Source: Candidatus Kaiserbacteria bacterium (GTDB lineage: Bacteria; Patescibacteriota; Minisyncoccia; Phycocordibacterales; UBA2100). Taken from it: a stretch of 64,000 nucleotides of DNA. Shown in pieces: positions 35,621 to 54,737 of the stretch (position 1 is its first letter; every line of letters begins with the position of its first letter). The stretch is taken from the NCBI GenBank assembly GCA_016432285.1, contig CP066682.1:15026-79025 (forward strand). The letters are read 5' to 3'. The notes beneath the pieces are model-generated. The model was not told where the DNA came from and did not search any database. It saw only the letters and a list, made by a program, of their open reading frames with translations. Position numbers and translations under genes: made by a program.

Positions 35621-35695
35621 TGGGCGACCGGCGGGATTCGAACCCGCAACCGCCTGGACCACAACCAGGAACTCTACCATTGAGCTACGGCCGCC
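35621..35695 (-). tRNA. tRNA-His(GTG)
   Basis: Cloverleaf with encoded G-1, GTG anticodon, TTCGAAT T-loop and CCA. Confidence 0.96.
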
Positions 35696-35696
35696 A

Positions 35697-36197
35697 TCAC
35701 GATCGAGCCTTGAGGAGACCGCGATCACGCCCCACATCATAATGATGTACAAGGAAATGGCAATTGTGGCAGAGCCATACTAAATTTCCCTCGGCGTTGT
35801 TGAGCCGGTTCCGATCGATATGATGCACCGCGAGCACTCGGTGATCGGTCGTTTTGCACAGAACGCATAGCTTCGTTCTACCCGCTCGATCGAGCACGGT
35901 TCGGTAGGCCTGTCTGCCATGTTTCCAGTTCGCGTGCTTCGGTCCGATAAATACTTGATTCCGCCATCTTGTTTGACACGATCGGCCGCAAAAGTATTTT
36001 CCGCTTTTCGAGGTGCGAACTTGCTTGGGAGTTCGGTGGACGTCTTTGCCGCAGAGAAAGCAAGAGAATTGCGTCCGGCGTCGGTTTGAAAGATAGCCGC
36101 ACTCGCGGCTGCAATATTTTCCGTGCCCCAATCTGACGTGGCTGGGCTTTGTCTTGAATACTTTCCCGCATCGTGCGCACTCGCGCATGAGAGCCAT
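35697..36197 (-). CDS. HNH endonuclease with N-terminal Cys (zinc-finger) repeats
   Basis: Two CxxC...CxxxC units, then CVLC...VHHIDRNRLNN...NLVWLCHNCH. Confidence 0.88.
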   Translation of the reverse strand: MALMRECARCGKVFKTKPSHVRLGHGKYCSRECGYLSNRRRTQFSCFLCGKDVHRTPKQVRTSKSGKYFCGRSCQTRWRNQVFIGPKHANWKHGRQAYRTVLDRAGRTKLCVLCKTTDHRVLAVHHIDRNRLNNAEGNLVWLCHNCHFLVHHYDVGRDRGLLKARS

Positions 36198-36280
36198 TGA
36201 ACAAGTCTAGCAATGAAGGGAAAGGAGGTAAAGACAGCAGTTTGTGGATTATGTCCACAAGACGATGTATCTACCAATAC

Positions 36281-36307
36281 AAACGCCCGCCGAATCGGCG
36301 GGCGTTT
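36281..36307. terminator. Intrinsic terminator
   Basis: AAACGCCCGCCG-AAT-CGGCGGGCGTTT. Confidence 0.8.
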
Positions 36308-36323
36308 GTCCTGAAGCGCCGCG

Positions 36324-36707
36324 TTACATCGCCGGCTGCATCGAAGAGGAGGAGCCCTCTTTCATCCCAAAGCCGATCCACAAAAGTGCGACGGCAAGAA
36401 TGAGGTGGAGGACATGGTCGGCAGTGTTGGTCATGATGAGACCGAGAACGGTGTCACCCTGCACGAAGCCGACAACCGTCACGACCGCGTATACGACGCC
36501 GAATACCTGGAAGTAGAGGCGCGCGTACTGTCCGCTCATCGCGACCGCGATAGCGAGCGCTCCCGAGAGGAGGTGGATGACGTTGTGCAGGCCATCTACC
36601 TGGAAGATGCCGAGGAGCATCCCGTTTTGGGTGGCTGCCGGCACATATCCGAGAGCGCCGACCGCGAGGAAGACGATTCCGAAAACCCACGCGAGTTTCT
36701 GAACCAT
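36324..36707 (-). CDS. DUF4383-like membrane protein
   Basis: LLGIFQVDGLHNVIHLLSG and NTADHVLH motifs. Confidence 0.85.
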   Translation of the reverse strand: MVQKLAWVFGIVFLAVGALGYVPAATQNGMLLGIFQVDGLHNVIHLLSGALAIAVAMSGQYARLYFQVFGVVYAVVTVVGFVQGDTVLGLIMTNTADHVLHLILAVALLWIGFGMKEGSSSSMQPAM

Positions 36708-36789
36708 ATATGTGTGGTTATGAATACTAATCATCGACCACCTGTTCATTAATTGTTCTCCCCCGGAAAATAAGTGTCAAGTCCCCTTT

Positions 36790-37902
36790 TCACTCCACTT
36801 TCTCCGCGAGCACAGCCGCGCTTGAGGTGGCCACCACGCTGAACGACACGCGCCCGATCACGTGCCCGTATCGCGTGAGCACGTTGAGGCGCCACTTGCC
36901 GGGGCTCGGCTCGGTTTTGATCGAGTATCCGCGGTAGCCGCCCTCCCTGCCGCCCACGATCTCAAATGGAATCGTCTCATCGGTGCGCCATTCGTCGGCC
37001 GCTTCATCGTAGTGCTGCCACTCATGGAAGATCGTGGTCGAAAGACCGGAGGGAGCGAAGACGGCAGAGAATACATACACGGGCTCGCCCGGCGCCCGGT
37101 GGTACACGGTGTTGTACCGGAGGTAGGCCTCGTACCACCGCAAGGGCTCATAGGAGAGCCGGTAGTCGCTGCCCTCGCGCACGACGCGGTGATACACGCC
37201 ACCCTCCTTGAGGGCAAGCGGCAAGGGCGGAATCACGCCGGAAAAGTAGAAGAGGTTGAAAGTCAGAAAAATGATCGCGATCGCTCGCGCCACGTTGGTA
37301 CGCGCTGCCTTTGCGCGCTCGGGCACGAGGTACGCGAGCAGGTGGAAGAATGCGGTGATGAGAAGGAGGCTCACAATCCCGCTGACCACAAACATGTACG
37401 GGCCGATCTGTTTGAAGACGACGGGAAGAAAAAAGATGAGGAACGAAAAGAGCACTGCAAAAAACATGCTCACCTGGAAGGTGAAGCGCATGTAGAAGCG
37501 CACGAAGCGCTCGTTCCCCACGAGCAGTATCGCGAGAATCGCGATGAAAATCCACGTCAGCTCCACCGCGGCGCTCCTGCTGTAGAGCGAAAAGTACGCG
37601 GTGAAGAGCCCGCCGAAGGCAAACTGCGCCACGACGGGGATCAGTGGCGTTATTTTGATGAGCCACGGATTCTTGAGGCGGCCGGTTTCGATCAGATTGA
37701 GGATGGTGATACAGCTTGCCGCGAGCGAGAGGTAGAAAAGCAGGAGGAGATTCCCCGTCCACAGGTCGACGCGCCGCAGGAGCACGAAGTAGTCGAGAAG
37801 GAGCGCCGCGACGAGCGAGATCGGAGAAATGTAGCGCATATACCACTGCGCCAGCTCCTCCACGTTTTTGGGCAATTTGGTAAGCCGGGTGCGTGCCATC
37901 AT
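36790..37902 (-). CDS. Membrane protein with a C-terminal DUF2914-like domain
   Basis: Multiple TM helices, IPPLPL, SAVFAP, GGREGGYRGYS and PGKWR. Confidence 0.82.
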   Translation of the reverse strand: MMARTRLTKLPKNVEELAQWYMRYISPISLVAALLLDYFVLLRRVDLWTGNLLLLFYLSLAASCITILNLIETGRLKNPWLIKITPLIPVVAQFAFGGLFTAYFSLYSRSAAVELTWIFIAILAILLVGNERFVRFYMRFTFQVSMFFAVLFSFLIFFLPVVFKQIGPYMFVVSGIVSLLLITAFFHLLAYLVPERAKAARTNVARAIAIIFLTFNLFYFSGVIPPLPLALKEGGVYHRVVREGSDYRLSYEPLRWYEAYLRYNTVYHRAPGEPVYVFSAVFAPSGLSTTIFHEWQHYDEAADEWRTDETIPFEIVGGREGGYRGYSIKTEPSPGKWRLNVLTRYGHVIGRVSFSVVATSSAAVLAEKVE

Positions 37903-38468
37903 GGATTCGTTGTTTTGTATTCGGGAGAGCGCTCGTCCACCCCTGCGCGTTGGTTCTCGAGTCGCGCGAGCGCATAAAAGAGCGATGAGAGCCGGTTGGC
38001 GTACGCGCGACTCCCTTCGGAGACCGTGCGATCTCCCGATTCGTGGACCGTCACGAGCCTGCGCTCTGCCCGTCTTGAGATAGCACGCACGATATCGAGA
38101 CGCGCGGAAAACTCCGTGCCACCCGGCACGAGGAAGGTCTTGATCGCTGGCAACTCCTTTTCGATGTCATTGATCAAAGCGCCGAGCGCCTCGACGCTCG
38201 ATTGCGGCACCGACTTCTGCGCCCCCGCGACCTCCGCCTGAATCGTAAAGAGATGATCCTGCACTCCGAGGAGCACGTCCCGGACGGGGGTACCAGTCAC
38301 GGGAAAATCGTCGGGAGCGGCCACCTTGCACCAGCCGACAATAGTGTTGAGTTCGTCGAGCTGTCCCAAGCACTTGAAAATAGCTGAAGACTTGGAGATG
38401 CGTACGCCAGGCTTCGAGTCAAAAAGTTTGGTAGTACCGCCATCCCCCTTTCCCGTAAAAAGCGCCAT
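37899..38468 (-). CDS. PduO-type ATP:cob(I)alamin adenosyltransferase
   Basis: FTGKGDGGTT, GQLDELN, RAISRRAERR and NRLSSLFYALAR motifs. Confidence 0.92.
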   Translation of the reverse strand: MALFTGKGDGGTTKLFDSKPGVRISKSSAIFKCLGQLDELNTIVGWCKVAAPDDFPVTGTPVRDVLLGVQDHLFTIQAEVAGAQKSVPQSSVEALGALINDIEKELPAIKTFLVPGGTEFSARLDIVRAISRRAERRLVTVHESGDRTVSEGSRAYANRLSSLFYALARLENQRAGVDERSPEYKTTNP

Positions 38469-38529
38469 GCGGCAATCATAACAAACAGCGCGTCTTACTC
38501 CGTGCGGTATCATGTACGGATCGACAGCC

Positions 38530-39765
38530 ATGGAAACTCTTGAGCGTAAAGACGGGCATGATGATCTTCACACACCCTACTGTGAGATCACTCTCAAGCA
38601 GTACTCTGAAGCAGTGCCCGAGAAAAAGAAGTCGTTTGAAATCGTGATGAAAGAAATCGATCGGCAAGGAATCGAAAACTTCGAAGTGTTTCAGTCGGAA
38701 CGATTTCCCGGGGTCGCCTTTTCACACACGAAACTTCAAATAACTCCAGAATTAATACAAAAAATTCGTGAACAAACAATACCTGCACATGCGGACACGA
38801 CTGACGACGAACAGACTAGTACTGAAAATCAGGAAGAAGAAACAAATGCGAAAAGGCATGATTATTTTTTATTCACTGCGTCTGCCCCACCTCCCGACGG
38901 ACATGCGTTCACGGTCCAGGACGTGGCCATAGACCGATTCATTCGCCTCATGCCTCGCGTCGCGAATGCGATCAGACGGGGCGAGAATCCGCCGGAAGTG
39001 AGCGTCTATCTTCTTGGCGCCCCAACGGGGCTCGGGGGTTCGGTTACTCCAGAGTGGTTGGAGACGATCCGACAACGCGGATTTGAAGGACACGGCGAAC
39101 TCTATGCGGAGTTTATCGAGAAGCAGGAATCAGCGAACAAGAAATCAACCGAGGTCCCTCATATCGTACTTCAGGGTGTGTCGAAAGGAGCTGTCGTTGC
39201 AGAGAAGACCTCGAAATACCTTCCGGGGGAGCTCGCGCAACACACGCAAAGACTCCTCGATAACCCCGCCGGCGATCACGAAAAAAATCCTGCGCGCTGG
39301 CTGAAGGGGGCAGAGGTAGCGCTTGGCTACACGGGCGAGGCACTAGCGAGGATGCTTTTCGACGACACGATGAAGGGCCTTATGAAGCGCGGCAACGCAT
39401 TTATCAATTACCTGTCCCTGGAAAAGGGCATCCCGAAAGATGCGCCTGAACAACTAAAGCTCAAATGGAAAGCGACGATCGTGGAAGTGTGGACGCTCAT
39501 CAAAGGATCTTCTCTCGACACAGACGGGGTACGATCATTTATCCGTCGGGGGATGTACGATCCGGTGACCTTTAGCATGGGCCGGCTTTTTGAGATTTGG
39601 CAGAAATCAAACCAAGGAAAGGGGGCGCAATTTTATCAAGACGGAAAATCCGTCGAGGCTCCTTTCCGCGGACAGCACATGTTTTTCTACAACAGATATA
39701 AGCGCTGGAGCACGATCCTGGATTTTGCTGAAGGCTCTTCCGATACCACACCCGCCCGCCTCTAG
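38530..39765 (+). CDS. Hypothetical protein, possible alpha/beta hydrolase fold
   Basis: HIVLQGVSKGA (GxSxG); visibly lower GC than the flanks. Confidence 0.6.
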   Translation: METLERKDGHDDLHTPYCEITLKQYSEAVPEKKKSFEIVMKEIDRQGIENFEVFQSERFPGVAFSHTKLQITPELIQKIREQTIPAHADTTDDEQTSTENQEEETNAKRHDYFLFTASAPPPDGHAFTVQDVAIDRFIRLMPRVANAIRRGENPPEVSVYLLGAPTGLGGSVTPEWLETIRQRGFEGHGELYAEFIEKQESANKKSTEVPHIVLQGVSKGAVVAEKTSKYLPGELAQHTQRLLDNPAGDHEKNPARWLKGAEVALGYTGEALARMLFDDTMKGLMKRGNAFINYLSLEKGIPKDAPEQLKLKWKATIVEVWTLIKGSSLDTDGVRSFIRRGMYDPVTFSMGRLFEIWQKSNQGKGAQFYQDGKSVEAPFRGQHMFFYNRYKRWSTILDFAEGSSDTTPARL

Positions 39766-39833
39766 TGGGGTGCAGGGAGACTCGTCGACGTAAAAATCGC
39801 AATGCCGCTATCATAGCGGGCGGCACCCTCAAG

Positions 39834-40331
39834 CTAGAGTTTCTTCAGGGCCCCACCGTCTAACCGGTATGTATGCAGATCATCCAACCTCTTTGCACCA
39901 ATGGAGGAGAAAAAGGTACCAGCATCCGAATTCCAATCAAGCGCGTGCCAGTCCAGCCGCCCATAATCCCGCTCCTTACAAATATCCGCAAGCTTCTGCA
40001 TGAGTTCGCGCCCTACACCCGTTCGTCGATGAACCTCATCGACGTAGATGTCTTCCAAAAACATGCCGGGTTTCCCCTCCCATGTGGAGTAGTTCTGAAA
40101 GAAAAGAGCAAGTCCTATCGCTTTACCATTGAACTCAGCAAGTATGCACTCGAAAGGAGGTTTTGGTGATTCGAGCTGTTTCGTTACCTGCTCAGCCGAC
40201 ATGTGGACCTTCTCGCGACCCTGATGATGTTCGGCGAGTTCGTTGACTAGACGGACAATCTCCGCGGCATCTTGCGGCCCCGCCATTCTCAAAGCAGGCT
40301 TTGGTTGCTCGAAGCTGTCGCGTAAATCCAT
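39834..40331 (-). CDS. GNAT acetyltransferase, diamine/spermidine acetyltransferase (SSAT)-like
   Basis: NYSTWEGKPGMFLEDIYV, RRTGVG and LDWN motifs; the ATG overlaps the tRNA-Leu CCA. Confidence 0.88.
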   Translation of the reverse strand: MDLRDSFEQPKPALRMAGPQDAAEIVRLVNELAEHHQGREKVHMSAEQVTKQLESPKPPFECILAEFNGKAIGLALFFQNYSTWEGKPGMFLEDIYVDEVHRRTGVGRELMQKLADICKERDYGRLDWHALDWNSDAGTFFSSIGAKRLDDLHTYRLDGGALKKL

Positions 40332-40417
40332 GGTGCCCAGGGGGGGACTCGAACCCCCACGCCCTTGCGGGCTACGCCACCTCAAGGCGTAATGTCTACC
40401 AATTTCAACACCTGGGC
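40331..40417 (-). tRNA. tRNA-Leu(GAG)
   Basis: Cloverleaf with a long variable arm, anticodon arm ACGCC-TTGAGGT-GGCGT, and CCA. Confidence 0.95.
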
Positions 40418-40419
40418 AT

Positions 40420-41070
40420 TTATAACTTCTGGCCCACTATAGCCAACATTCTCACGATCTTCAATCTCTTCCTCCGCAGACAGAGGACATCGCCGCCACC
40501 GTACATCGTGCGCAGTAATTTCAACGAGGTGCGTTTTGCGTACTTGAGTTGCATCGTCGTCCCTTCGCGGTCGCGCGTTATGTGTCCTTTGACACCCAAT
40601 CGCTTGCTTATTTCCCGACGCAGCCAGTTGATGTGCGACATGCTCGCCGATGCAAACACAGTGTAGAACATGAAGCTTGATTTCCAACGCGGATCCCAAT
40701 ACGAGTAGGTGGAGCCATCGCCGTCAAACGAGCCCCGCAGAAAATCAAAAAAATATTCCCGTGGCACGCTTACCGCGCCGATTATTTTCGATTTATTCGG
40801 CATAAACCCGATAGACAGGAGGTACCGATAAAAGAGCACGTCTCCAAACTGCGCGCGCCAGTGCCCTGTGCTGTTCTTTCCGATGCTGTTTACTATGCCC
40901 AGTGCGCGAAGAAAATTTTCCACCTGCTCTCTGTCTTTTGAGACAAAGACGATGTGGCGGCCGTCAGGCGACAAGCAACCATCTGCCGCGAGAAGCCCGA
41001 GGGCATAGGCAAAGTTCGGAGACCATTCGATCTTGACTTTTCCGGCCGGACTTCTCCCCCGCCTTCTCAT
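40420..41070 (-). CDS. Double-motif LAGLIDADG homing endonuclease
   Basis: YALGLLAADG and FLRGSFDGDG motifs, ending with LRRKR. Confidence 0.88.
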   Translation of the reverse strand: MRRRGRSPAGKVKIEWSPNFAYALGLLAADGCLSPDGRHIVFVSKDREQVENFLRALGIVNSIGKNSTGHWRAQFGDVLFYRYLLSIGFMPNKSKIIGAVSVPREYFFDFLRGSFDGDGSTYSYWDPRWKSSFMFYTVFASASMSHINWLRREISKRLGVKGHITRDREGTTMQLKYAKRTSLKLLRTMYGGGDVLCLRRKRLKIVRMLAIVGQKL

Positions 41071-41133
41071 AACGCGATAAGTATATATCGCTCAAGTAGA
41101 TAGCGTCTACCAATTGTTTAAAAATAAAAAATG

Positions 41134-41589
41134 CTACTCCGCCTTCGCTTCGGTAGACGCAACGGGTTCGCTCTTTGCGCCAACCTCTTCCTCAGTTGCG
41201 GATTCGAGCTTTTCCTCCGCTTTCATACTGCCGCCCAAGACTCGTGTGCGGCGCAACTGTCGGCGGGCTTCGCGGGCCACTTTTTCGCGGATGTAGTAGA
41301 GCTTCGCGCGGCGCACGCGGCTTCGCTTCAGGATTTCGATTTTGTCGATCATCGGCGAGTAGAGTGGGAAGACCTTCTCGACACCAACGCCCGAGAGAAT
41401 GCGGCGGACCGTAAAGGTGGCACCCGCTTCGGTGCCGTGCTTTCGAGCGAGCACCAAGCCCTCGAAGGCCTGCAAGCGGTACTTGCCCTTTTCCTCCTCG
41501 ATCTTTTGCCAGACGCGCACGGTGTCTCCCGGCCGGAGGTCGAGATTCTTTCGCGCATCCATATCGACTGGCGATACTTTCACTGCCAT
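41134..41589 (-). CDS. rplS: 50S ribosomal protein L19
   Basis: [15 protein letters not shown] and VRRAKLYY motifs. Confidence 0.97.
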
Positions 41590-41616
41590 AGTCGCGGCAC
41601 TATACCATCGTGATTT

Positions 41617-41895
41617 CTAGAAAACAACCTCGAAATTCTCGAGCTGCTCGCCCGCTTGGCGCCATTCCACATGCACGTCCGACACCCGCGCGAGGAAGGG
41701 GCCCTTCCGCAGGTGCGCGATCAATTTCTCAAGCCTGTCGTGGTAACCCTGCGCAACGACCTCTACCATAAAATCGGAAGTGTTGCGGACGTAGCCCGTA
41801 AGCGCGAGGTGCCGGGCGTGCTTTACCACGAAATCCCGGAAGAAGACGCCCTGTACTTTGCCCTTGACGATGCATCGGATCTCCTCGGTTTGCAT
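41617..41895 (-). CDS. acyP: Acylphosphatase
   Basis: GKVQGVFFR, GYVRN and KGP motifs. Confidence 0.93.
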   Translation of the reverse strand: MQTEEIRCIVKGKVQGVFFRDFVVKHARHLALTGYVRNTSDFMVEVVAQGYHDRLEKLIAHLRKGPFLARVSDVHVEWRQAGEQLENFEVVF

Positions 41896-42052
41896 GTGCG
41901 CGGTGAGGGATTTGGTCACGGATAATTTTCTGTTGAAAATTTCCGCGACCCCGCCTCGCGCCGTCGCGCTCCGGCTTTCAAATCCCTGCTCCCAAATTTT
42001 ACAACGCCCCTTTCGGGGCGTCGAAAAATTCGGGTGCGCGGTGAGGGATTTG
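41896..42052 (-). mobile_element. 138-bp structured mini-element at the tRNA-Val 3' end, with a 19-bp direct repeat
   Basis: GTGCGCGGTGAGGGATTTG at 41896-41914 and 42034-42052, internal palindromes, no ORF. Confidence 0.7.
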
Positions 42053-42106
42053 AACCCCCGACCTTCTCTGTGTAAAAGAGTTGCTCTACCACTGAGCTAA
42101 CCGCGC
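42035..42106 (-). tRNA. tRNA-Val(TAC)
   Basis: Cloverleaf with TTTACAC anticodon loop and TTCAAAT T-loop; CCA not encoded. Confidence 0.93.
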
Positions 42107-42123
42107 ATCTCTATCCCACCGTG

Positions 42124-42195
42124 TGCCCCCGCTAGGAGTCGAACCCAGATCAACGCCTTAGAAGAGCGCTGCTTTATCCATTAAGCTACAGGGGC
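42124..42195 (-). tRNA. tRNA-Arg(TCT)
   Basis: Cloverleaf with CTTCTAA anticodon loop; CCA not encoded. Confidence 0.94.
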
Positions 42196-42253
42196 ATCAG
42201 CCGAGGGACCGAGATTCCAATCGTAGCCGGGGGCGGGGTGGCGGTCAACGATG

Positions 42254-43125: not shown

Positions 43126-43127
43126 AC

Positions 43128-43661
43128 TCAAAATGCGCCCGTGAGCGTGATCGTAAAGCGGCCTGCGTCCGCACCGGTGCCAGTCAATACATTGAGTGGC
43201 ACCGAAACGGTCTTGAATCGTTTGTCTGCCCGCAGCTGCGCCGCAAACGAGTTGATAGTTTCCCGCGTCGGCGCGCTTCCCGTGAGCATGATCGTACTGT
43301 CGGCACCCGCACTTTGTGCAAACGAAAGCGCCGTGAACAGTACGCCCTTCGGACGCTGCGCGACCACCTCTTTCAGCACGTTGAATCCCGGGGCGGTTGT
43401 CGAGGCCATAGCGATCAGTTGCCGCACGATCGTTTGGCTTTTGCCGAGCTCGATCTGCTCGCTCTTATCTTCCGGCGAAAGCTGGGGCGGGGCGATTACC
43501 TCCTCCACATCATCGGCACGCGTGACGGCATATACCGGGAGGAGCGCCAGCGTACCCACGAGCGCGACCACAATGGCTGCAATCGATCCGAGCAGCAGAA
43601 AGCGCGCGCGGTACAGACGCGACATCTTTTTTTGTGCGGCTTCGGGAAGTACGTTGGTCAT
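43128..43661 (-). CDS. PilN-like protein
   Basis: N-terminal NVLP, TM helix and LTGSAPTRE; follows pilM. Confidence 0.75.
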   Translation of the reverse strand: MTNVLPEAAQKKMSRLYRARFLLLGSIAAIVVALVGTLALLPVYAVTRADDVEEVIAPPQLSPEDKSEQIELGKSQTIVRQLIAMASTTAPGFNVLKEVVAQRPKGVLFTALSFAQSAGADSTIMLTGSAPTRETINSFAAQLRADKRFKTVSVPLNVLTGTGADAGRFTITLTGAF

Positions 43662-44803
43662 ATCAGTGAGACGCCTCGGAGCGCGAGGCCGACGGCCGTG
43701 GCATATTGCAGCGACTCACGATACGTGATCGGCGGTACGTAGTCGTCGAAATCCGCGACATTCTTCCACACATTGGGTTGGTCGGTGGGTGCTTGCACGC
43801 GACCGGCGATGTAGTCAGTGATGCCCTTCATGTTGGAGGTACCGCCGAGGAGGTACACCTGCTCCACCGGAGTCATGCGCTCGCCGTGCTCGTTGCGACG
43901 CGTGTCCCAGTAGTGATAGTGACGCGCCACCTCGTCCGCGAGCGCTGCCGCCGCACCGGCAACGGCTTCGGCACCGGGGGATTTCGCGCCCCCCTCCGGG
44001 GCAATACCCTGCTCGTTGTTGAACTTCATCGCTTCCGCTTCGCTCAGGGAGAGCTTTTCCATGATGGCCTTGATCACGGTGCCGCCGCCGATGGAGACGG
44101 TCGAGGTAAAAATGGGAATGCCGCGCTTCAAGACGGCAAAGCCGCTTCGCGTGCGGCCGAAGTCCACGAGGAGGGTGATCGGGTCGGCGCCCTCCCGACT
44201 CGAGATCGCCCGCGCGATCGAGCTTGCCTCAAGCTCGAGGGAAGCGAGCGGGAGATCGGCGGCGGCGAAGGCCGCCGCGTAGCTTTCGGAAATATCGCGC
44301 GGAAAGACGACGACCCCGATTTCTTCTCCGGCCCCGTTCTTCTCGATGAGATTAAAATCGTAGACGGCGGCGGAGGGCGGAATCGGTACGCGCGCCTCCA
44401 GCTCAAACTCGATGAGACTCAAAATCTGCGCGCGGCGCGAACCCGGAGGCACTTGCATGCTAAAGACGTACGCTGCCTCCTCCGGCAGGGCGGCGTGCGC
44501 GCATTCAATGCCTCGAAGCTCCTTTTTTACCGCAGCAAGAATCGAGACAAGCCCCTCTTTGTCATGCACGAAACCACCCACAACGACACCCTCGGGAATC
44601 GCAATCTCCCCCCACGAACGCACCCGGAGGCCGTTGCCTTTTTTTGCGCTCTCGAGTGCGAGCCATTTGACCGACGCGTCGGAGATGTCGATGCCGGCCG
44701 ATGGCGGCGCAAGGAGCCGCGGCGTCGGAAACGCGCGAGAAAGCGTGCGTGAAAATCCGCGCACGCTCTCCGGCAGATGGATCTGCACGGACGAAAGCTG
44801 CAT
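43658..44803 (-). CDS. pilM: Type IV pilus assembly protein PilM
   Basis: GIDISDASVK, LVDFG, IGG and YATAVGLALR motifs. Confidence 0.9.
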   Translation of the reverse strand: MQLSSVQIHLPESVRGFSRTLSRAFPTPRLLAPPSAGIDISDASVKWLALESAKKGNGLRVRSWGEIAIPEGVVVGGFVHDKEGLVSILAAVKKELRGIECAHAALPEEAAYVFSMQVPPGSRRAQILSLIEFELEARVPIPPSAAVYDFNLIEKNGAGEEIGVVVFPRDISESYAAAFAAADLPLASLELEASSIARAISSREGADPITLLVDFGRTRSGFAVLKRGIPIFTSTVSIGGGTVIKAIMEKLSLSEAEAMKFNNEQGIAPEGGAKSPGAEAVAGAAAALADEVARHYHYWDTRRNEHGERMTPVEQVYLLGGTSNMKGITDYIAGRVQAPTDQPNVWKNVADFDDYVPPITYRESLQYATAVGLALRGVSLI

Positions 44804-44823
44804 GCTGAAAGTATACCGCGCCT

Positions 44824-45156
44824 TTATCGCAACTTTGTGCCGGGAGGCACCTCGCGCTCGGGGAAAAGCAGCGCAACCCCCGACTCGTCGCTCGCGGCGA
44901 GAAGCATGCCCGCGCTTTCGATGCCGCGCAGCACGCGCGGCGCGAGATTCACCACGTACGGCAACCGCCTGCCGACCAGCTCCTCCGGTTTTTTCCACTG
45001 TGCGATGCCCGAAACGATCGTGCGCACGCCAAGCTCACCAAAATCGACGGTGCACTTGATCAACTTGTCGGTTTCCGGGACGAGCTCGGCGGCTTTCACT
45101 TCGCCGATCCGTATGTCGAGCTTCGCGAAATCGTCGTAGGTGATTTCCGGCAACAT
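44824..45156 (-). CDS. Stand-alone tRNA-binding OB-fold protein (MetRS C-domain/Trbp111-like)
   Basis: ITYDDFAKLDIRIG, RTIVSGI, NLAPR and ESAGMLL motifs. Confidence 0.9.
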   Translation of the reverse strand: MLPEITYDDFAKLDIRIGEVKAAELVPETDKLIKCTVDFGELGVRTIVSGIAQWKKPEELVGRRLPYVVNLAPRVLRGIESAGMLLAASDESGVALLFPEREVPPGTKLR

Positions 45157-45161
45157 AGCGC

Positions 45162-45554
45162 CTACTCTACCGCGCGCGGGTGCATATCCAAATACCGCTG
45201 AAGGATCACGGCCGCGGCTGCCGCATCGTTGTGCGGGGAGCCGGGTGGCGCGAATCGCGCCGCCTCCTGGCTGCTCCAGCTCTCCGGCACGAGCTCGACC
45301 GGGATACCGCCGCGTGAGAGGTCGGCGACAAACTCCTCCGCCGCCTTGGTGATCGTGTTTTCCGCGCCGCCTCCGGTGCGCGTGTCGCCCACCACAATGA
45401 GCTGCACGCCCTCGTCTGTGGCGAGCGTCAAAAGCGAGCGCACGATCTTCTCGTCATTGGTGATGACCGCGCGCGGAAAAGCGATCGCGCCGCGATCGTC
45501 GGAAATCGCGACGCCGATGTTCTTCGTCCCATAGTCCACTCCCATGCACTTCAT
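45162..45554 (-). CDS. ruvX: RuvX/YqgF nuclease
   Basis: GVDYGTKNIGVAISD and DAAAAAVILQRYLD motifs. Confidence 0.93.
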   Translation of the reverse strand: MKCMGVDYGTKNIGVAISDDRGAIAFPRAVITNDEKIVRSLLTLATDEGVQLIVVGDTRTGGGAENTITKAAEEFVADLSRGGIPVELVPESWSSQEAARFAPPGSPHNDAAAAAVILQRYLDMHPRAVE

Positions 45555-45557
45555 ATG

Positions 45558-45971
45558 CTAATTGTCGGCGAGTTTTGATGTTTTGTACAACTCCGGCTTG
45601 TGCGGCTTGAGGCGCACAGTTCGGACATTCATTCCTGCTTTCTGCAAATCATCTTCGAGATCTCTCACATACATTCCTTCCTGATCATAGCCGAGCGCGA
45701 TCAGATCCGGCCGCGCCGCTGCGATGTGTGCGACATAGCCAATCTCGTCGCTCAGTACAACCTCATCGACGAGTGGGTGCTTTCGGAGGAGTGCGCACCG
45801 TTCACTTTCTGAATGTCGCGGACGAAATCCCTTGATTCGCTCCACGTTGCGATCCCGCGCAAGCGAGACGATGAGATGCGGATCCGCGGCGAGCGCTCTC
45901 GCCTGCTTGAAAAAATCTTCGTGTCCGGGGTGCACGATGTCGAAGGTGCCGAACACCATGATGCGCGTCAT
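45558..45971 (-). CDS. Cytidylyltransferase-family FAD synthase (RibL-like)
   Basis: [23 protein letters not shown] and YKTSK motifs; coupled to the riboflavin kinase gene. Confidence 0.8.
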
Positions 45972-46315
45972 ACCGCCCGAAAAAAGGCACGCGCCGCTGC
46001 CGCATCTTGCTCGATCGCGGCCCGCAGCGCTTCGTCGCTGTCGTACACGGCGCTCTCGCGAATCTTTTTCAAGAGCTCAACCTCAATCTCTCTGCCGTAG
46101 AGGTCGACGCTCGCGTCGAGGACGTGGGCTTCGAGCAGGTTGCGCTTCTGGTCCGCAAAAGCGACCGCCGGATGCACATCCCCCGCCACGTATACGCGGG
46201 CTACGAAGATACCTGTGATCGCCGGGTCGTCGAGCGTAATGTTGAGCGTGGGAAAACCGAGCGCGGACGCGCGCTTATTGCCGTTCTGTACCACTCCTTT
46301 ATACATATGCCCCAT
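45968..46315 (-). CDS. Stand-alone riboflavin kinase
   Basis: LGFPTLN, EAHVLD, DLYG and KKIRE motifs; the start could be 46306. Confidence 0.88.
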
Positions 46316-46316
46316 G

Positions 46317-46401
46317 CGGAGGGGGTGAGATTCGAACTCACGGTGGGTTTCCCCACTCTTGTTTTCAAGACAAGCGCTTTAGACCTCTCAGCCACCCCTC
46401 C
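46317..46401 (-). tRNA. tRNA-Ser(TGA)
   Basis: Cloverleaf with a long variable arm and anticodon arm CTTGT-CTTGAAA-ACAAG; CCA not encoded. Confidence 0.95.
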
Positions 46402-46480
46402 GAGGCTCGTTGTATCACGTATTTCGACTATACACAGCGACAGCAAAACGGCCTTCACGAGCGGGGTACAATTGCCCCAT

Positions 46481-46885: not shown

Positions 46886-46975
46886 TCGTTTGATCGCAGG
46901 AGAGCGCCGGACAGGTATTCCCTGTCCAGCGCTCTTTTTGGCAAGCGCAGTGCGATGCTGCGATACAATACGAGC

Positions 46976-49531: not shown

Positions 49532-49618
49532 GCACGCATGATACCCCGGGAAGCCGAAGGGTGTTTAAAAAATGTGGAAAAACGCGGAAATAATGGTACA
49601 TTTCCTTCGTTCGCTGAC

Positions 49619-49693
49619 GCCCTCGTCGTTCAATGGATAGGACGCATCCTTGCGGAGGATGTAATGTGGGTTCGATTCCTGCCGAGGGCACCA
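49619..49693 (+). tRNA. tRNA-Arg(GCG)
   Basis: Anticodon arm CATCC-TTGCGGA-GGATG, TTCGATT T-loop and CCA. Confidence 0.93.
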
Positions 49694-49694
49694 A

Positions 49695-49958
49695 CTAAGC
49701 GATCGCGCGCAGTTTCTTCGTGAGGCGTGATTTCATGCGGGCTGCCGTATTCTTTTTGATCGTCCCGTTCTTTGCCGCCTTGTCGATCGCCTGGTAGAGC
49801 GCGGGAAGACCCCCGGCTGCTTCGCCCGCCTTTTTGGCGGTGATGAGTTTCGAGACGGTTTTTACGCTGGTCTTCATCGCGCGCGAGCGGCGCGCGTTGA
49901 AAACGCGGCGCCGGAGGGCGACGCGCTGTGCCTTTTTTGCCGAACTCGTATTCGCCAT
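49695..49958 (-). CDS. rpsT: 30S ribosomal protein S20
   Basis: MANTSSAKK, IDKAAK and KNTAARMKSRL motifs. Confidence 0.96.
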   Translation of the reverse strand: MANTSSAKKAQRVALRRRVFNARRSRAMKTSVKTVSKLITAKKAGEAAGGLPALYQAIDKAAKNGTIKKNTAARMKSRLTKKLRAIA

Positions 49959-50022
49959 GTGCGCGGATACTACACGCTTTTTTTGGGGGGCGCAAGAAGA
50001 GCGCCTGGGGTATGATGTCTCT

Positions 50023-50598
50023 ATGATCGGACGGCTCGAGGGAGAAGTATCGGCACTGCGACCCGGATTCTGCATTCTGAGCGTGGGCGGCGTCGGGTAC
50101 CGCGTAGCGGGGACGCGCGAAGCGCTCGCTTCCCTCAAGGTGGGTGAGCGCGCCGCATTCTGGACGTACCTTGCGGTGCGCGAAGACGCGCTCGATCTCT
50201 ACGGCTTCAAAACGGAAAACGAGCAGCACTTTTTTGAAATGCTGCTTTCGGTCCCGGGCATCGGTCCCAAATCCGCACTCGCCATCCTGGATCTCGCGCT
50301 CGTGGAAACACTCCGCAGCGCGATCGCAAGCGGCAACGCTTCGTATCTCACCAAGGTGTCAGGCATCGGCAAGAAAACCGCGGAGAAAATCGTAGTCGAG
50401 CTGCGCGACAAGGTGGGCGCGAGCGCGGAAGGCGTGGAGCGGAGCCTCAGCGGCGACGAGGAGGCCCTCGAAGCGATGCGGGCGCTCGGCTACAGCCACG
50501 CCGAAGCGCGGGAAGCGTTGCGAAAAGTGCCGACGGAAGTCGTGGGCGGCAGCGCGCGGCTGCGCGAAGCGCTTCGGATTCTCGGCTCCCGTTCATGA
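50023..50598 (+). CDS. ruvA: Holliday junction DNA-binding protein RuvA
   Basis: GGVGY, VREDALDLYGF, GIGPKSA and GIGKKTAEK motifs. Confidence 0.96.
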   Translation: MIGRLEGEVSALRPGFCILSVGGVGYRVAGTREALASLKVGERAAFWTYLAVREDALDLYGFKTENEQHFFEMLLSVPGIGPKSALAILDLALVETLRSAIASGNASYLTKVSGIGKKTAEKIVVELRDKVGASAEGVERSLSGDEEALEAMRALGYSHAEAREALRKVPTEVVGGSARLREALRILGSRS

Positions 50599-51872
50599 CG
50601 CCCGGGCAATCGCTCAAAATAGTGCTGAAGCACGCGCTGCCCCCGGCGCTTTTCGAAAAACTGCTCTCTGCATACCATTTTCTGCTCGCGGGCATCGGCG
50701 CGCTGCTGTACCGCTTTCCTTCGAGGAGGCTCCTTGTCGTGGGCGTTACCGGCACCAAGGGTAAGTCGAGCGTAACCGAAATGATCAACGCGATCCTGGA
50801 AGAAGCGGGGCACCGCACCGCGCTCATCAATTCGATCCGCATCAAGATCGGCGACAAATCGATGCGCAACGCGTCGGGTCGCTCCATGCCCGGGCGTTTT
50901 TTCATCCAGCGCTTTTTGCGACGCGCGCTCGCCCGCAAGTGCACGGCAGCAATCCTTGAGATGACATCTGAGGGCGCGAGGCAGCACCGCCATCGCTTTC
51001 TCGACCTCAACGCGCTCGTGTTTACCAACCTCGCGCCCGAGCATATCGAATCGCACGGCTCGTACGAAGAGTACGCCGACGCGAAATACTCGATCGGGCT
51101 TCAGCTCGTCCGCTCGCACAAACGTCCGCGCCTTTTGGTCGCCAATGCGGACGATCCTGAGAGCGCGCGCTATCTTCTCCTGCCGGTCGAATCGGCAATC
51201 CCCTTCTCGCTTTCGGCGCAGCGTCCGTGGACGGCGGACGAGCGCGGCGGCTCGTTCACCTTTGAGGGCGTACAGGTCCCCGTGCAATTGCCTGGAGAGT
51301 TTTCACTCCGCAACGCGCTCGCGGCTGCCATGCTCGCGCGAGCGCTCGGCGTGCACAGAGAAGTGATCGCACGTGCACTCGATACGCTGCGCGAGATACC
51401 CGGGCGCGCGCAGCGTATTGAGGAGGGGCAAGCCTTTACCGTTGTCGTCGACTACGCACATACTCCGGACTCTCTCAAGGCGCTCTTCGAGGCATACCGA
51501 TCGAAGCGAAAAATCTGCGTCGTGAGCGCCACCGGCGGCGGACGCGACAAGTGGAAGCGGCCCGTCATGGGGAAAGTGGCGAGCGAGCAGTGTGATGTGG
51601 TGATCGTTACCAACGAGGATCCGTACGACGAGGACCCCCGGGCGATCGCCGAGGAGGTCGCGGACGGCGCGGCAAAGGCGGTGATCGAAATCGACCGGCG
51701 CACCGCGATTCGAAGAGCGCTTGCGGAGGCTCGTCCCGGGGATGCGGTCTTGATCACCGGCAAGGGTACCGACTCGTCGATCCACGGCCCTGCGGGGAGC
51801 GAAATCCCGTGGAACGACGCCGCAGTGGTGCGGGACGAGCTGAAGAAAGTTTTGCAAAACAAAGCGCAGTGA
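50595..51872 (+). CDS. murE: Mur ligase, MurE-like
   Basis: GVTGTKGKSS, EMTSEG, VDYAHTPD, EDP and GKG motifs. Confidence 0.88.
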   Translation: MTPGQSLKIVLKHALPPALFEKLLSAYHFLLAGIGALLYRFPSRRLLVVGVTGTKGKSSVTEMINAILEEAGHRTALINSIRIKIGDKSMRNASGRSMPGRFFIQRFLRRALARKCTAAILEMTSEGARQHRHRFLDLNALVFTNLAPEHIESHGSYEEYADAKYSIGLQLVRSHKRPRLLVANADDPESARYLLLPVESAIPFSLSAQRPWTADERGGSFTFEGVQVPVQLPGEFSLRNALAAAMLARALGVHREVIARALDTLREIPGRAQRIEEGQAFTVVVDYAHTPDSLKALFEAYRSKRKICVVSATGGGRDKWKRPVMGKVASEQCDVVIVTNEDPYDEDPRAIAEEVADGAAKAVIEIDRRTAIRRALAEARPGDAVLITGKGTDSSIHGPAGSEIPWNDAAVVRDELKKVLQNKAQ

Positions 51873-51901
51873 AGGGGCGGCGCGTACTATAATCTGAATA
51901 C

Positions 51902-52924
51902 ATGGCATCGCACGGCGGCGGAGGCGGAATGGTCAAGACGATCCTGATCTGGTCGGCGGTCATCATCGCGATCATCCTCGTGCTCTTGTGGCTCATTTCG
52001 GGCGGGCCACGCAAAATCCGCGAGGCAGCCGGAGGTATCGGAAATCCGCTCTCGGCGATCTTCGGATTCGGCACCTCCAAGGGAGCGGCGTTCAAACTGC
52101 CGTGGCAGCCGAACGATCTCAACATCGCGCCGGAACTTACCTTTGGCACTGACACGGAATCGGGAGAGTCGCCGAATCCGGACGAGCTGAGCGATGCGGA
52201 GCGGGAATATGAGGAGCTCCAGCGAAAAATTGTGGCGGCCAAAAATTTCGGCGAACCGTCGCCCTATCGCGGACAGGTGTCGATCTACGAGCACGCCGCA
52301 GACGAGAGCGCGGAGAGCGAGTACGTCTCGATCCAGGCTTCGAGCGAAAACACCGCGCCCGTATCGCTCGCTGGCTGGTCGCTCCAGAGCGCGGTTACCG
52401 GTATTCGCGGCTTCGTGCCGCGCGGCACGAGCATCTTCACCTTGGGTGCGATCAACGCGCAGCAAACCATTTCGCTTGAGCCGGGAGTGTCGGCGGTGAT
52501 CGCGAGCGGCTTTTCGCCCGTCGGTACGTCATTCCGCGAAAATCTCTGCACCGGCTATCTTTCGCAAATGCAGGATTTCAGACCCTCGCTGGGGAACCGT
52601 TGCCCCGCGCCTTCGGAATCGCTGCCGCTCACCGCGGACAACGTGCGATTGTACGGCGAGAGCTGCATCGACTTCGTGCGCGAGCTCCCCGCGTGCACCT
52701 TTCCGCTCACCGTACCCAACAACCTCACCTCCGCGTGCCGCGGATTCATCGTCGAGAAGCTCTCGTATAACGGCTGCGTCGACACGTACCGTTATCGCAG
52801 CACCTTTTTGCGCGGCGTGTGGAGAATCTACCTCGGTGCTGGCAACGAGCTCTGGCGCAACGCGCACGATGTTGTCCGTCTTCTCGATGCCGAAGGACGC
52901 ACAGTAGACGTGCTCGTGTATTAG
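51902..52924 (+). CDS. Membrane-anchored protein with a lamin-tail-like domain and a Cys-rich insert
   Basis: TM helix, EYVSI...VSLAGWSL and W...DVVRLLDAEGRTVD. Confidence 0.7.
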   Translation: MASHGGGGGMVKTILIWSAVIIAIILVLLWLISGGPRKIREAAGGIGNPLSAIFGFGTSKGAAFKLPWQPNDLNIAPELTFGTDTESGESPNPDELSDAEREYEELQRKIVAAKNFGEPSPYRGQVSIYEHAADESAESEYVSIQASSENTAPVSLAGWSLQSAVTGIRGFVPRGTSIFTLGAINAQQTISLEPGVSAVIASGFSPVGTSFRENLCTGYLSQMQDFRPSLGNRCPAPSESLPLTADNVRLYGESCIDFVRELPACTFPLTVPNNLTSACRGFIVEKLSYNGCVDTYRYRSTFLRGVWRIYLGAGNELWRNAHDVVRLLDAEGRTVDVLVY

Positions 52925-53385
52925 GAGCGAGCAGAAAAGAGAATCACTCCCGCAGCCACGGCGACGTTGAGGGACTCTTTTTTTCCGCGCATCGGTATTT
53001 CGATCAGCGTGTCGCACCGTTCGCGCAGCTTCGGCGAGAGCCCGCGCACCTCGTTGCCAAACACATAGAGTACGCGCCCTTTCGGCTTCAGCTTCCGATA
53101 ATCCTTCGATCGCGGATCCTGTTCGACGCCGACGATCCTCCACCCCGACTTTCGCAGTGTGGCGATCACCGATTCGGCGGATGCACTTTTTTGCCACGGA
53201 ATGAACTGCTCGGCACCGAGCGCTGTCTTCGCGATCTCCTTTTGCGGACGGCCGAACCGATCGATCGGCGCGGGTGTGAACCCGGAGAGATAGACCTTCG
53301 ATACGCCGGCGGCATCGGCGGTGCGAAAAATGGATCCGACGTTGTGCGTGCTGCGGACGTTGTGCAAAAGGATCGCGATTTCCAT
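52921..53385 (-). CDS. TrmH/SpoU family RNA methyltransferase
   Basis: HNVGSIFRTADA, GNEVRG and IPMRGKKESLNV motifs. Confidence 0.94.
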   Translation of the reverse strand: MEIAILLHNVRSTHNVGSIFRTADAAGVSKVYLSGFTPAPIDRFGRPQKEIAKTALGAEQFIPWQKSASAESVIATLRKSGWRIVGVEQDPRSKDYRKLKPKGRVLYVFGNEVRGLSPKLRERCDTLIEIPMRGKKESLNVAVAAGVILFSARS

Positions 53386-53422
53386 GCGGCACACTGTATA
53401 GGCAATACGCTATACTGTCTCC

Positions 53423-53767
53423 ATGCTCTCGGTTTTCCCCGAAATCCTCTACCTCTCACCATTCGCACCCTTTCTTATTCGCGTCGCGCTTGCGGTCGTC
53501 TTTGGATACGCGGCATGGCAACACTTACAGCGAAATGATATGCCTTCTCGCGTACTCGCGGTCGGCGAGATCGCGGTAGCGATCGCGTTTGTGGCGGGCT
53601 GGTGGACGCAGCCGGCGGCGATTCTTGCCACGATCGTGGGCGCGATCTGGTTTTTCCAACCAACGAGCCGCGTCTATGCCCTGAGCACGATCCTGCTTTC
53701 GATCTTGCTTCCCTTCACGCTCCTCATCACCGGCGCCGGCGCACTCGCCTTCGATCTGCCGCTCTAA
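53423..53767 (+). CDS. DoxX-like membrane protein
   Basis: Hydrophobic, ending with GAGALAFDLPL. Confidence 0.75.
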   Translation: MLSVFPEILYLSPFAPFLIRVALAVVFGYAAWQHLQRNDMPSRVLAVGEIAVAIAFVAGWWTQPAAILATIVGAIWFFQPTSRVYALSTILLSILLPFTLLITGAGALAFDLPL

Positions 53768-53806
53768 TAGCATCTCGAACCGCTGTCTGTTACGATGCAA
53801 AGGTAG

Positions 53807-53878
53807 CCGCCCGTAGCTCAGTGGTAGAGCAGACGCCTTTTAAGCGTAAGGTCGTTGGATCGTTCCCAACCGGGCGGA
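53807..53878 (+). tRNA. tRNA-Lys(TTT) with an atypical T-loop
   Basis: CCGCCCG/CGGGCGG acceptor stem, CTTTTAA anticodon loop, ATCGTTC T-loop; CCA not encoded. Confidence 0.88.
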
Positions 53879-53879
53879 C

Positions 53880-54737
53880 ATGAATGCCTTCGCCAAACGC
53901 TGCGTCGAACTGCGAAAATCGGATCACACGCTCAATGAGATATCCGAGATAACCGGACGACCCAAAACGTCAGTGTATCCCTACATCCGCCACATGCCGC
54001 TCAGCAGGGAGCGGAAAGAGGCGGTTCTCGATTCGTATCGGTTGCGCGTGCGCAAAATTGCCGCGCGGAGGAAAGGAAAGAGCGTCAGAAGCTTCAAGAG
54101 ATTCACTTCGTGGAGTCCGCAAACGGTATCGCTCGTATCGCATCTGATTTTTGACGGCGAGCTGAACCGCTCCGGTTGTAGTTACAACAACCGAAGCTCG
54201 AGTCTCATTGCGCACGTACGGGAGTGTATGAGGCGGATATACGATTACGATCCGAGAAGCTACGTGGATCCCAAGAGCAAGGTAATCCGCATTAGCTATT
54301 ACAACGTCGCTCTTGGACAATACCTGACACGAAAGTCGCGAGAGCTACTCGGCACAATCGATGTCATGTCGACGGATTCCAAAAAGGAGTTCTTGAAAGC
54401 TTTTTTCAACGACGAGGGCTGCATGGACTTTAGGCCCGAAAGAAATGTCCGGCAGATTCGTGGTTATCAAAAGAACGTGGCCGTCCTACAGATTGTAAAG
54501 GGTCTTCTGCTCGATATGGGAATTGAATCAACAGTTAAGAAACCAAATGAAGTCGTGATCGTCGGTCGAGAGAATCTTTTGAGATTTGGGGAAAAAGTAA
54601 ACTTCTCCCCAGGGGTGCGCATCAATGGATTGCGGTCGAACAGCCTCTGGAAGCAGCCGATGGAGAAGCGCGAACTTCTCGAGCGCGCGATCGCATCGTA
54701 CAAACCCGCAGGCAGCAGCGGTGTGCATCGCCGCTGA
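53880..54737 (+). CDS. LAGLIDADG endonuclease-like protein with an N-terminal HTH
   Basis: HTH-like LRKSDHTLNEISEITGRPKTSV; LAGLIDADG-like LVSHLIFDG and FLKAFFNDEG. Confidence 0.82.
   Translation: MNAFAKRCVELRKSDHTLNEISEITGRPKTSVYPYIRHMPLSRERKEAVLDSYRLRVRKIAARRKGKSVRSFKRFTSWSPQTVSLVSHLIFDGELNRSGCSYNNRSSSLIAHVRECMRRIYDYDPRSYVDPKSKVIRISYYNVALGQYLTRKSRELLGTIDVMSTDSKKEFLKAFFNDEGCMDFRPERNVRQIRGYQKNVAVLQIVKGLLLDMGIESTVKKPNEVVIVGRENLLRFGEKVNFSPGVRINGLRSNSLWKQPMEKRELLERAIASYKPAGSSGVHRR

Follow-up and report, generated by a model that had tools for sequence, protein, structure and literature searches.

Homing that needs no intron has been described from phages, and homing that replaces the end of a gene has been described from yeast (PMC2988022, PMC7282813). 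SegB of phage T4 is a GIY-YIG enzyme whose recognition of a T-loop motif common to tRNAs lets it cut many tRNA genes, in vitro even those of T4 itself (PMC2330249); between a Seg gene and the site of its enzyme there are hundreds to thousands of bases (PMC2330249, PMC2988022). The yeast WHO elements replace one end of FBA1 with a resistant allele and leave the old end behind as a fragment (PMC7282813), and I-TevI represses itself through an operator that mimics the homing site, overlaps the promoter of the enzyme's own gene and is missing something that cleavage requires (PMC2988022). In bacteria of the candidate phyla radiation (CPR), homing endonucleases are described from rRNA introns and rRNA spacers (PMC8172020), and active LAGLIDADG enzymes such as I-ShaI, encoded in rRNA introns, are reported in a paper whose main text uses neither 'tRNA' nor 'free-standing' (PMC11270868). 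Here we describe a different arrangement in a 64,000-nucleotide stretch of the chromosome of Candidatus Kaiserbacteria bacterium (GCA_016432285.1, contig CP066682.1, positions 15,026 to 79,025; hereafter the window), in which three free-standing nuclease genes each adjoin an intact tRNA gene. A search of largely open-access literature found no published description of tRNA-adjacent free-standing nucleases in Patescibacteria.

The cassettes at these loci combine traits of T4 SegB, the yeast WHO elements and I-TevI and belong to none of those families. As with SegB, a free-standing nuclease gene that is absent from relatives lies among tRNA genes and has a target, here a predicted one, inside tRNA genes. 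Unlike SegB, the enzymes are chromosomal LAGLIDADG and HNH proteins, each tied and directly adjacent to one isoacceptor, and the carriers hold a recoded tRNA allele; the predicted sites also fall within ~40 bases of the nuclease gene, in contrast to those of Seg enzymes. That these are selfish tRNA-linked nuclease cassettes is, in our view, real and well supported. The evidence, drawn throughout from genomic sequence, comprises linkage, empty sites, remnants, changed alleles, promoter look-alikes and stranded half-tRNAs, and it suggests that at least two of the three nucleases attack the normal form of the adjoining tRNA gene. We think it likely that they are intronless homing cassettes that replace one half of the tRNA with a resistant version and repress their own expression.

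The window genome comprises 859,170 bases on one contig, with 58% GC and 97% completeness, and holds a single copy each of tRNA-His(GUG), tRNA-Leu(GAG) and tRNA-Lys(UUU). By Rfam models all three are uninterrupted, full length and intron-free; the fast Rfam filter missed tRNA-Leu, which scored 46.1 bits in a later scan. On the minus strand, a gene for a 166-residue protein with a zinc finger and an HNH domain (35697..36197) precedes tRNA-His (35622..35695), itself a predicted resistant allele. The stop codon ends at 35697 and ARAGORN starts the tRNA at 35694, which leaves a gap of 1 nt when G-1 at 35695 is counted. On the same strand, a two-motif monomeric LAGLIDADG nuclease of 216 residues (40420..41070) has a stop codon that ends at 40420, 2 nt before tRNA-Leu (40331..40417), which begins at 40417. 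On the plus strand, tRNA-Lys (53807..53878), in which the anticodon stem is altered and the T-loop is unusual (A at position T54), has its discriminator at 53878, and an ATG at 53880 opens a gene (53880..54737) for a 285-residue protein with an N-terminal helix-turn-helix (HTH), two LAGLIDADG motifs and an I-DmoI-like fold. An earlier note on this DNA had reported three nuclease genes abutting co-oriented, intact tRNAs, and both the coordinates and the uninterrupted tRNAs are confirmed. Contigs of one public sequencing run, which is possibly the source of the assembly and not independent of it, span all three junctions with no other letters. All three nuclease genes are low in GC (0.52-0.54), which puts them under the 5th percentile for long open reading frames.

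Four ordinary genes of the window genome, encoding riboflavin kinase, prfB, a DNA methylase and a NUDIX protein, also start 0-1 nt past a tRNA, so the abutment at tRNA-Lys is weak evidence when taken alone. Chance is ruled out because the linkage holds family-wide: across Patescibacteria, 79/80 loci of the Leu family (the best 80 relatives of the Leu protein), 69/70 of the His family and 16/16 of the Lys family are tRNA-linked, an enrichment that the earlier note had anticipated. A complete tRNA-Leu(GAG) lies directly behind the nuclease in 74 of the 80 Leu loci, with five more cut by a contig end and one without flank, and rplS lies upstream in 70. The best 30 Leu-type loci of the genus adjoin Leu(GAG) (18), Leu(CAG) (5), Leu(TAG) (4) and Asp (2), with 1 unresolved. 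ARAGORN places tRNA-His behind the HNH gene in 66 of 70 distinct metagenome loci, and three more have visible tRNA-His sequence; in the genus, all 15 full HNH genes and three stubs adjoin tRNA-His. Among 301 phylum genomes, 10/10 non-self HNH matches fall ≤80 nt from tRNA-His (8) or tRNA-Ser(UGA) (2). The Lys-type gene follows tRNA-Lys(UUU) in 13/13 genus loci with flank, as do 3/3 further family matches from 401 class genomes. Stand-alone nucleases are not always found at tRNAs, and one GIY-YIG gene has no tRNA nearby.

The linkage survey brought several related loci to light. A second HNH clade (~30% identity) precedes tRNA-Ser(UGA) at 12/12 loci (L164, L165, L167-L176) and also at L505 and L508; at the window's own tRNA-Ser(UGA) (46316-46401) no such HNH gene was detected. 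An Asp-linked paralogue (L145) precedes a tRNA-Asp that ARAGORN reads with a 213-nt intron in the anticodon loop; intron-mode ARAGORN calls were mostly spurious and were disregarded. A small stand-alone GIY-YIG gene (G000:C1:291729-291953) lies 82 nt past tRNA-Gln(CUG), and the insert ends in a short repeat of the tRNA 3' end.

Both LAGLIDADG proteins exceed the Pfam cut-off for LAGLIDADG_3 (35.2 and 31.8 bits versus 22.5). D30, D116 and D118 are invariant in 81/81 homologues of the Leu protein, whose family profile matches I-Tsp061I (2dch) with an expectation value (E) of 2.5e-7, a match of profiles and not of a modelled structure. D92 and E179 are invariant in 13/13 members of the Lys family, and a model of the Lys protein (predicted local distance difference test score 87.6) has I-DmoI as its top structure at E 1.6e-7, with WhiA structures ranked below at E 1.5e-6. 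The likeness to I-Tsp061I and I-DmoI extends to the fold and the two catalytic motifs; unlike the genes described here, those enzymes are intron-encoded in rRNA genes. In the HNH family, the motif HH..N..N..CxNCH is invariant in 22/22 aligned homologues, with H125, H126, N138, C143, N145, C146, H147 and H151 all conserved. With the HNH profile, a maturase chain scored E 1.7e-4 and McrA E 0.093, and the fold-search rows with probability >0.6 are Cap5, Gme HNH and McrA. The two LAGLIDADG proteins have no mutual match at E<1, and all three nucleases are mutually unrelated at that threshold. The two unrelated families of the earlier note have accordingly become three, and the convergence of unrelated families on tRNAs with neither intron nor intein stands. 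Genome-wide family searches returned no further LAGLIDADG or HNH match in the window genome. The ratio of nonsynonymous to synonymous substitution rates (dN/dS) is 0.05-0.19 in the 13 of the 25 closest pairs of Leu homologues for which it was computable, most with dS >1. Conserved catalytic residues and low dN/dS point to purifying selection, and all three enzymes are predicted to cleave their tRNA-gene targets site-specifically.

We read the tRNA loci in most of 116 genomes of the genus, obtaining 86 Leu sites (from 90 rplS loci fetched of 103), 77 His sites (69 via rplS and 8 via an HNH search) and 96 Lys sites. The Leu sites divide into 18 full genes, 24 remnants and 44 empty sites, the His sites into 15, 5 and 57, and the Lys sites into 14 carriers, including one with a frameshift and another interrupted where its contig ends, and 82 empty sites. 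Empty alleles in relatives had been foreseen in the earlier note, as had free-standing mobile nuclease genes, a description that is supported here for genes with conserved catalytic residues. Absence from the same locus in relatives is likewise a property of the free-standing genes of Seg and Mob intronless homing (PMC2988022). What the remnants retain is the last nuclease codons. A sigma-70-like promoter directed towards the tRNA lies within them, and this promoter-bearing end survives in the 24 Leu remnant alleles and in three C-terminal HNH remnants. In the window, the candidate tRNA-Leu promoter lies at 40436..40464 and the candidate tRNA-His promoter at 35736..35763, both on the minus strand, the latter identified by consensus match alone (10/12 positions). 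With promoter-like sites in the last codons of the Leu and His nucleases, expression of the tRNA could do without processing of a long co-transcript; RNase P RNA, which the earlier note had proposed as an agent of such processing, is present in the window genome.

On the rplS tree the Leu carriers are dispersed, with 16 changes needed to place 18 carriers among 62, and the window genome's own starred sister is an empty site. The flanks of empty sites show no conservation. Nuclease identity shows no correlation with that of rplS (rho 0.03 over a restricted range of identities), and the genus requires six changes on the nuclease tree versus one on the rplS tree. Repeated gain or loss within the genus is established. 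Searches of viral contigs with single-protein patterns, which recover close relatives only, gave nothing related to the Leu and His proteins and, for the Lys protein, a single match of 26 residues; in phage records there were 27-33% matches among the rows listed for two of the proteins and none for the third. Two checked phage matches of the Leu protein, the distant relatives L509 and L510 (NC_042090.1, NC_041913.1), split DNA polymerase genes of T5-like phages, each lying between two polymerase fragments and away from tRNAs. Four DNA runs had no joint removing a nuclease gene exactly among the joints listed, a result that is uninformative either way since 61 joints fell outside the listing and contigs drop rare variants. 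Among the sequencing runs listed as containing this DNA there was no RNA run.

Carriers also differ from empty sites in the tRNA itself. We defined the allele as the D-arm-to-anticodon segment for Leu and His and as the anticodon arm plus variable region for Lys. The genus's commonest allele occurs in 0/18 carriers versus 35/44 empty sites for tRNA-Leu, in 0/15 versus 38/57 for tRNA-His and in 0/14 versus 33/82 for tRNA-Lys, and 12 of the 15 His carriers hold an allele 17-21 edits away from it. The Leu anticodon stem nevertheless remains paired 5/5 in 17 of 18 carriers. There are 16 stem variants among these 18 carriers versus 9 among 44 empty sites, a diversity that would be expected if many routes to resistance exist. 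For Lys, the canonical T-loop is present in 4/14 carriers versus 55/82 empty sites and the common anticodon stem in 0/14 versus 44/82; a Lys target made up of the T-loop alone was thus only partly borne out, with the anticodon stem separating carriers more fully. An ATG right past tRNA-Lys was rejected as a sign of the cassette, the loose pattern also matching 19/82 empty sites.

At non-cognate tRNAs, carriers do hold the commonest allele (2/15 to 5/15; p 0.017-0.73), which argues that its exclusion from the cognate tRNA is not mainly an effect of lineage. Tests of independent pairs on starred rplS branches gave 6.2 versus 0 of 8 for Leu (p 0.03), 11.1 versus 0 of 13 when remnants were included (p 0.001) and 7.3 versus 0 of 9 for His (p 0.016). 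A carrier allele that differs from the recipient's is a feature of Seg and Mob homing; here it holds for Leu and His and is weak for Lys, with cleavage as the putative cause. The commonest tRNA-Leu allele recurs in 1 of the 24 Leu remnants. In that sole case (L220, genome G117) it follows the nuclease remnant directly, and the locus may be a reverted site open to re-invasion.

The Leu nuclease gene is leaderless, and its promoter-like site (41109-41080, within 41080..41112, minus strand) is overlain by a 22-nt sequence (41112-41091, minus strand) that copies the D-loop-to-anticodon segment of tRNA-Leu but is longer by one base, a candidate autorepression operator. This look-alike is within three mismatches of its consensus in 62/80 loci versus 2/4000 shuffles, with two conserved flanking blocks (most positions 0.87-1.0) and free middle bases. 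The spacer between the blocks is one base longer than the tRNA's in all 74 regex matches among 105 loci, four TAG rows reading 8 solely through the matching of a shorter end, versus the tRNA spacing in 95/97. The anticodon of the look-alike tracks that of the neighbouring tRNA, whether GAG, CAG (5 loci), TAG (4) or an Asp-type motif (2), and its distance to the -10 box varies. We took the look-alike minus its extra base as the predicted Leu site. It occurs in 2/77 carrier tRNAs versus 33/44 empty genus sites without mismatch, and in a class sample (counted by eye from the best 150 of 225 matches, with 9 non-tRNA rows dropped) in 0/12 adjacent carriers versus 31/129 other true rows. The window genome has the look-alike and no predicted Leu site; its tRNA-Leu carries an altered, predicted resistant version at 40381-40401.

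The HNH gene is preceded by a head-to-head pair of tRNA-His half-sites (36275-36254 and 36248-36227). The direct copy of the tRNA segment (36254..36275, minus strand) is an eroded stranded 5' half and a candidate operator half-site or recombination arm; the inverted D-loop-to-anticodon copy (36227..36248, plus strand) lies over the HNH gene's -35 box as assigned by eye and is a candidate operator half-site. These copies and the Leu look-alike are partial tRNA duplications (41091-41112 and 36227-36275) where the earlier note had seen none. A strict half-site pattern matches 31/77 HNH upstream regions versus 0/80, 0/524 and 10/7700 in controls, and a profile of the inverted copy has medians of 11.6 in empty-site alleles versus ~0 in carrier alleles. 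TCCACA alone was discarded as an operator, being perhaps DnaA-box-like and present in 43/77 HNH regions, 10/80 Leu regions and 4.6% of ordinary genes; the longer half-site test was used in its place. In the tRNA-Lys promoter region, a carrier-specific motif (53775..53804, plus strand) holds GAACC, the reverse complement of the T-loop motif, which is found in 10/14 carriers versus 0/81 non-carriers, the motif having been picked after the carriers were seen. As with I-TevI, a look-alike of the target, in this case of a predicted homing site, appears to overlap the nuclease-gene promoter. Unlike in that intron-encoded phage GIY-YIG system, the operators here are predicted, serve free-standing LAGLIDADG and HNH genes, and have a fixed one-base insertion (Leu) or take the form of a head-to-head pair (His).

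A profile of the tRNA-His 5' half finds matches in 14/77 HNH upstream regions, and at 12 of the 77 loci, two of which share one upstream sequence, a whole 5' half is present, starting with the acceptor stem and ending at the anticodon loop or slightly before. Two further 5'-half matches resemble neighbouring tRNA-Arg genes and were dropped. The whole stranded halves merge into the direct half-site, and at L159 the commonest tRNA-His allele is stranded upstream with a different allele downstream. Judging by these sequences, the anticodon loop can serve as the insertion point of the His cassette, which then supplies the new 5' half. In the Leu family 0/101 upstream regions reach the acceptor stem, and the promoter copy looks maintained, not left over. 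The parallel with WHO lies in splicing-free homing, here a proposed one, on an essential gene, the stranding of the old end and decay to pseudogenes. WHO elements encode intein-like and zinc-finger proteins, are eukaryotic and meiotic, target the 3' end of a protein gene and form tandem clusters (PMC7282813); here the tRNA 5' half would be replaced, and of the HNH and Leu families compared, only the former has whole stranded halves. The cassettes work like WHO and are not WHO, since both proteins and target are different.

Taken together, the loci lead us to propose that each nuclease cuts the commonest, 'naive' allele of its tRNA. In the Leu and His genes the cut would fall after the D-loop and before the anticodon loop; in the Lys gene it would probably fall in the part from the anticodon stem to the T-loop. 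Repair would then copy the nuclease gene and, with it, a recoded half of the tRNA in which pairing is kept and the site is lost. For the Leu cassette, the homology arms are probably the conserved upstream neighbour rplS (L19; 41134..41589, minus strand), the likely left arm, and the tRNA 3' half; the His cassette would recombine at the anticodon loop and leave the old 5' half upstream, like WHO at FBA1. By analogy with I-TevI, the protein would bind the promoter look-alike without cutting it, resulting in self-repression, and the extra base in the Leu look-alike would misalign the LAGLIDADG half-sites. Deletions would leave a stub because the last nuclease codons carry the tRNA promoter. Donor DNA may enter by natural competence: ComEC and RecA are present in the window genome, and Saccharibacteria are reported to be naturally competent with flanks down to 221 bp sufficing, the com genes being conserved over CPR phyla (PMC10633639). 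In a haploid cell, drive could arise if the sister chromosome is cut while still unconverted, or if alleles 'cured' of the cassette by transformation are killed.

Some of the same evidence can be read in other ways. Genes lying exactly at tRNA ends, as other genes here do too, would also be seen if the enzymes cut at the junction or flank, the boundary being a neutral parking place and the tRNA allele a hitchhiker from another lineage. Co-conversion of flanks is normal in homing (PMC2988022), and the Lys association is weak on independent pairs. We nevertheless consider such an arrangement distinctly unlikely, as the promoter look-alikes copy the tRNA interior, not the junction, and track the anticodon; the predicted Leu site is present in about a quarter of the other class rows listed and in 2/77 carriers; carriers hold many different recoded alleles instead of one donor type; stranded halves end at the anticodon loop; and the flanks of empty sites are not conserved. 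Of the earlier note's view that tRNA boundaries serve as neutral homing sites, the placement of the genes survives, while the evidence favours a target that lies within the tRNA gene. Alternatively, the cassettes may home and the upstream tRNA pieces be fossils or recombination arms, as in the WHO model, with no operators at all. The whole stranded 5' halves at HNH loci fit this, as does the proposal that the duplicated WHO fragment is a homology arm (PMC7282813), and for the direct His half-site it probably holds. As an account of all the pieces it is unlikely, albeit worth serious consideration: the Leu upstream regions stop short of the acceptor stem, the Leu copy keeps its one-base insertion in every match and its flanking blocks are conserved at ~57% protein identity, its distance to the -10 box varies, and the second His half-site has an inverted orientation that insertion could not have produced.

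The earlier note had also raised domesticated regulators of tRNA loci. The model for such a protein is WhiA/DUF199, a transcription factor that likewise joins a LAGLIDADG fold to an HTH in a bacterial chromosomal gene outside any intron (PMC3984707; PDB 3hyi, 3hyj). Purifying selection, the match of WhiA structures to the HTH-LAGLIDADG model, the regulation suggested by conserved promoter motifs and a genus monophyly that is not rejected are all compatible with domestication. WhiA, however, has lost its catalytic residues and has a C-terminal HTH, unlike the proteins described here, which keep invariant catalytic acidic residues and have an N-terminal HTH (Lys family) or none. The genes are also confined to a scattered minority of genus genomes and decay frequently to stubs, I-DmoI outranks WhiA, and there is little reason to expect a regulator to exclude an allele that fits its own binding motif; domestication is in our estimation very improbable. 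Even less credible is descent from integrative elements or prophages. tRNA genes are classic att sites and partial tRNA duplications do exist at these loci, but each cassette consists of one gene of ~0.6-0.9 kb with conserved neighbours on its two sides, a scan of 30 window proteins gave no integrase, the duplicated part is the 5' end or middle of the tRNA and not its 3' end, and relatives are absent at full length from the viral contigs and distant in phage records.

Other results weigh against our preferred interpretation of homing with tRNA replacement and autorepression, in which cleavage, binding, expression and biased inheritance of the cassettes are predictions from sequence. The HNH protein scores under the Pfam HNH_3 cut-off (16.6 versus 24.8 bits), and its model has no fold match at E≤0.001. 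Two of the non-cognate cross tests, with p 0.017 and 0.038, indicate some lineage effect, and edit-distance thresholds and several motifs were fixed after the alleles had been seen. Altered alleles also occur at empty sites (Leu 9/44, His 19/57, Lys 49/82), where they may be footprints of past visits. Two HNH loci (L392, L397) pair an intact-looking protein with a commonest-type or near-commonest tRNA-His, and two Leu carriers (L030, L042) hold the predicted Leu site. Lys is the weakest case, its target position being vague and its independent pairs not significant (3.1 versus 0 of 9, p 0.25). The inverted His half-site doubles in part as a -35 box, and TATCCACA resembles a DnaA box. An approximately unbiased test does not reject a single genus clade of Leu enzymes (p 0.30), and transfer between genera is only suggested.

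If confirmed, the proposal would place homing of this kind on a haploid bacterial chromosome, at essential single-copy tRNA genes and probably by way of natural competence. It would also explain the variability of some Patescibacteria tRNAs and the presence of a nuclease gene or stub at 42/86 tRNA-Leu(GAG) loci of the genus. The look-alikes predict a target of ~21 bases, with matched sensitive and resistant alleles, for hundreds of small LAGLIDADG and HNH enzymes, and the series GAG, CAG, TAG and Asp offers a natural set for studying how nuclease specificity changes. It is conceivable, on a judgement falling slightly short of even, that gene drives which rewrite tRNAs form a general class on the chromosomes of Patescibacteria, comprising at least four unrelated, isoacceptor-specialised families in which target-mimic operators evolved independently. 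The four families are the two-motif LAGLIDADG, the HTH-LAGLIDADG, the zinc-finger HNH and one that combines an HTH with a single LAGLIDADG-like motif. Were this so, repeated invasion and decay would be a main cause of tRNA sequence diversity in the phylum, odd T-loops included, and the operators would be a read-out of each enzyme's target.

The single-motif family is represented outside the window by a cassette at G000:C1:246343-247008 (L081, L468), whose stop codon lies 10 nt inside tRNA-Ile(UAU). That tRNA-Ile (G000 C1:246999-247071) stands beside the usual tRNA set; to our knowledge, a tRNA-Ile with a UAU anticodon is unusual in bacteria. The 14 closest genus loci of this family all lie at Ile(UAU), others are at Ile(GAU), Gly(UCC) and Gly(GCC), and 27/30 loci are ≤150 nt from a tRNA. 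Their promoters often contain a GAACC...GGTTC inverted repeat that resembles a T-loop. Members of the family often sit just upstream of rplS (for example G046:C30:4751-5269 and G092:C12:10266-10877), and the rplS region may hold a further tRNA-linked cassette site.

Elsewhere in the window, 4120-5181 is recA and 43128-45554 holds pilM, pilN and ruvX/yqgF. The riboflavin kinase gene (45968-46315) starts 0 nt past tRNA-Ser(UGA). Genes that start at tRNA ends suggest messages made leaderless by tRNA 3' processing.

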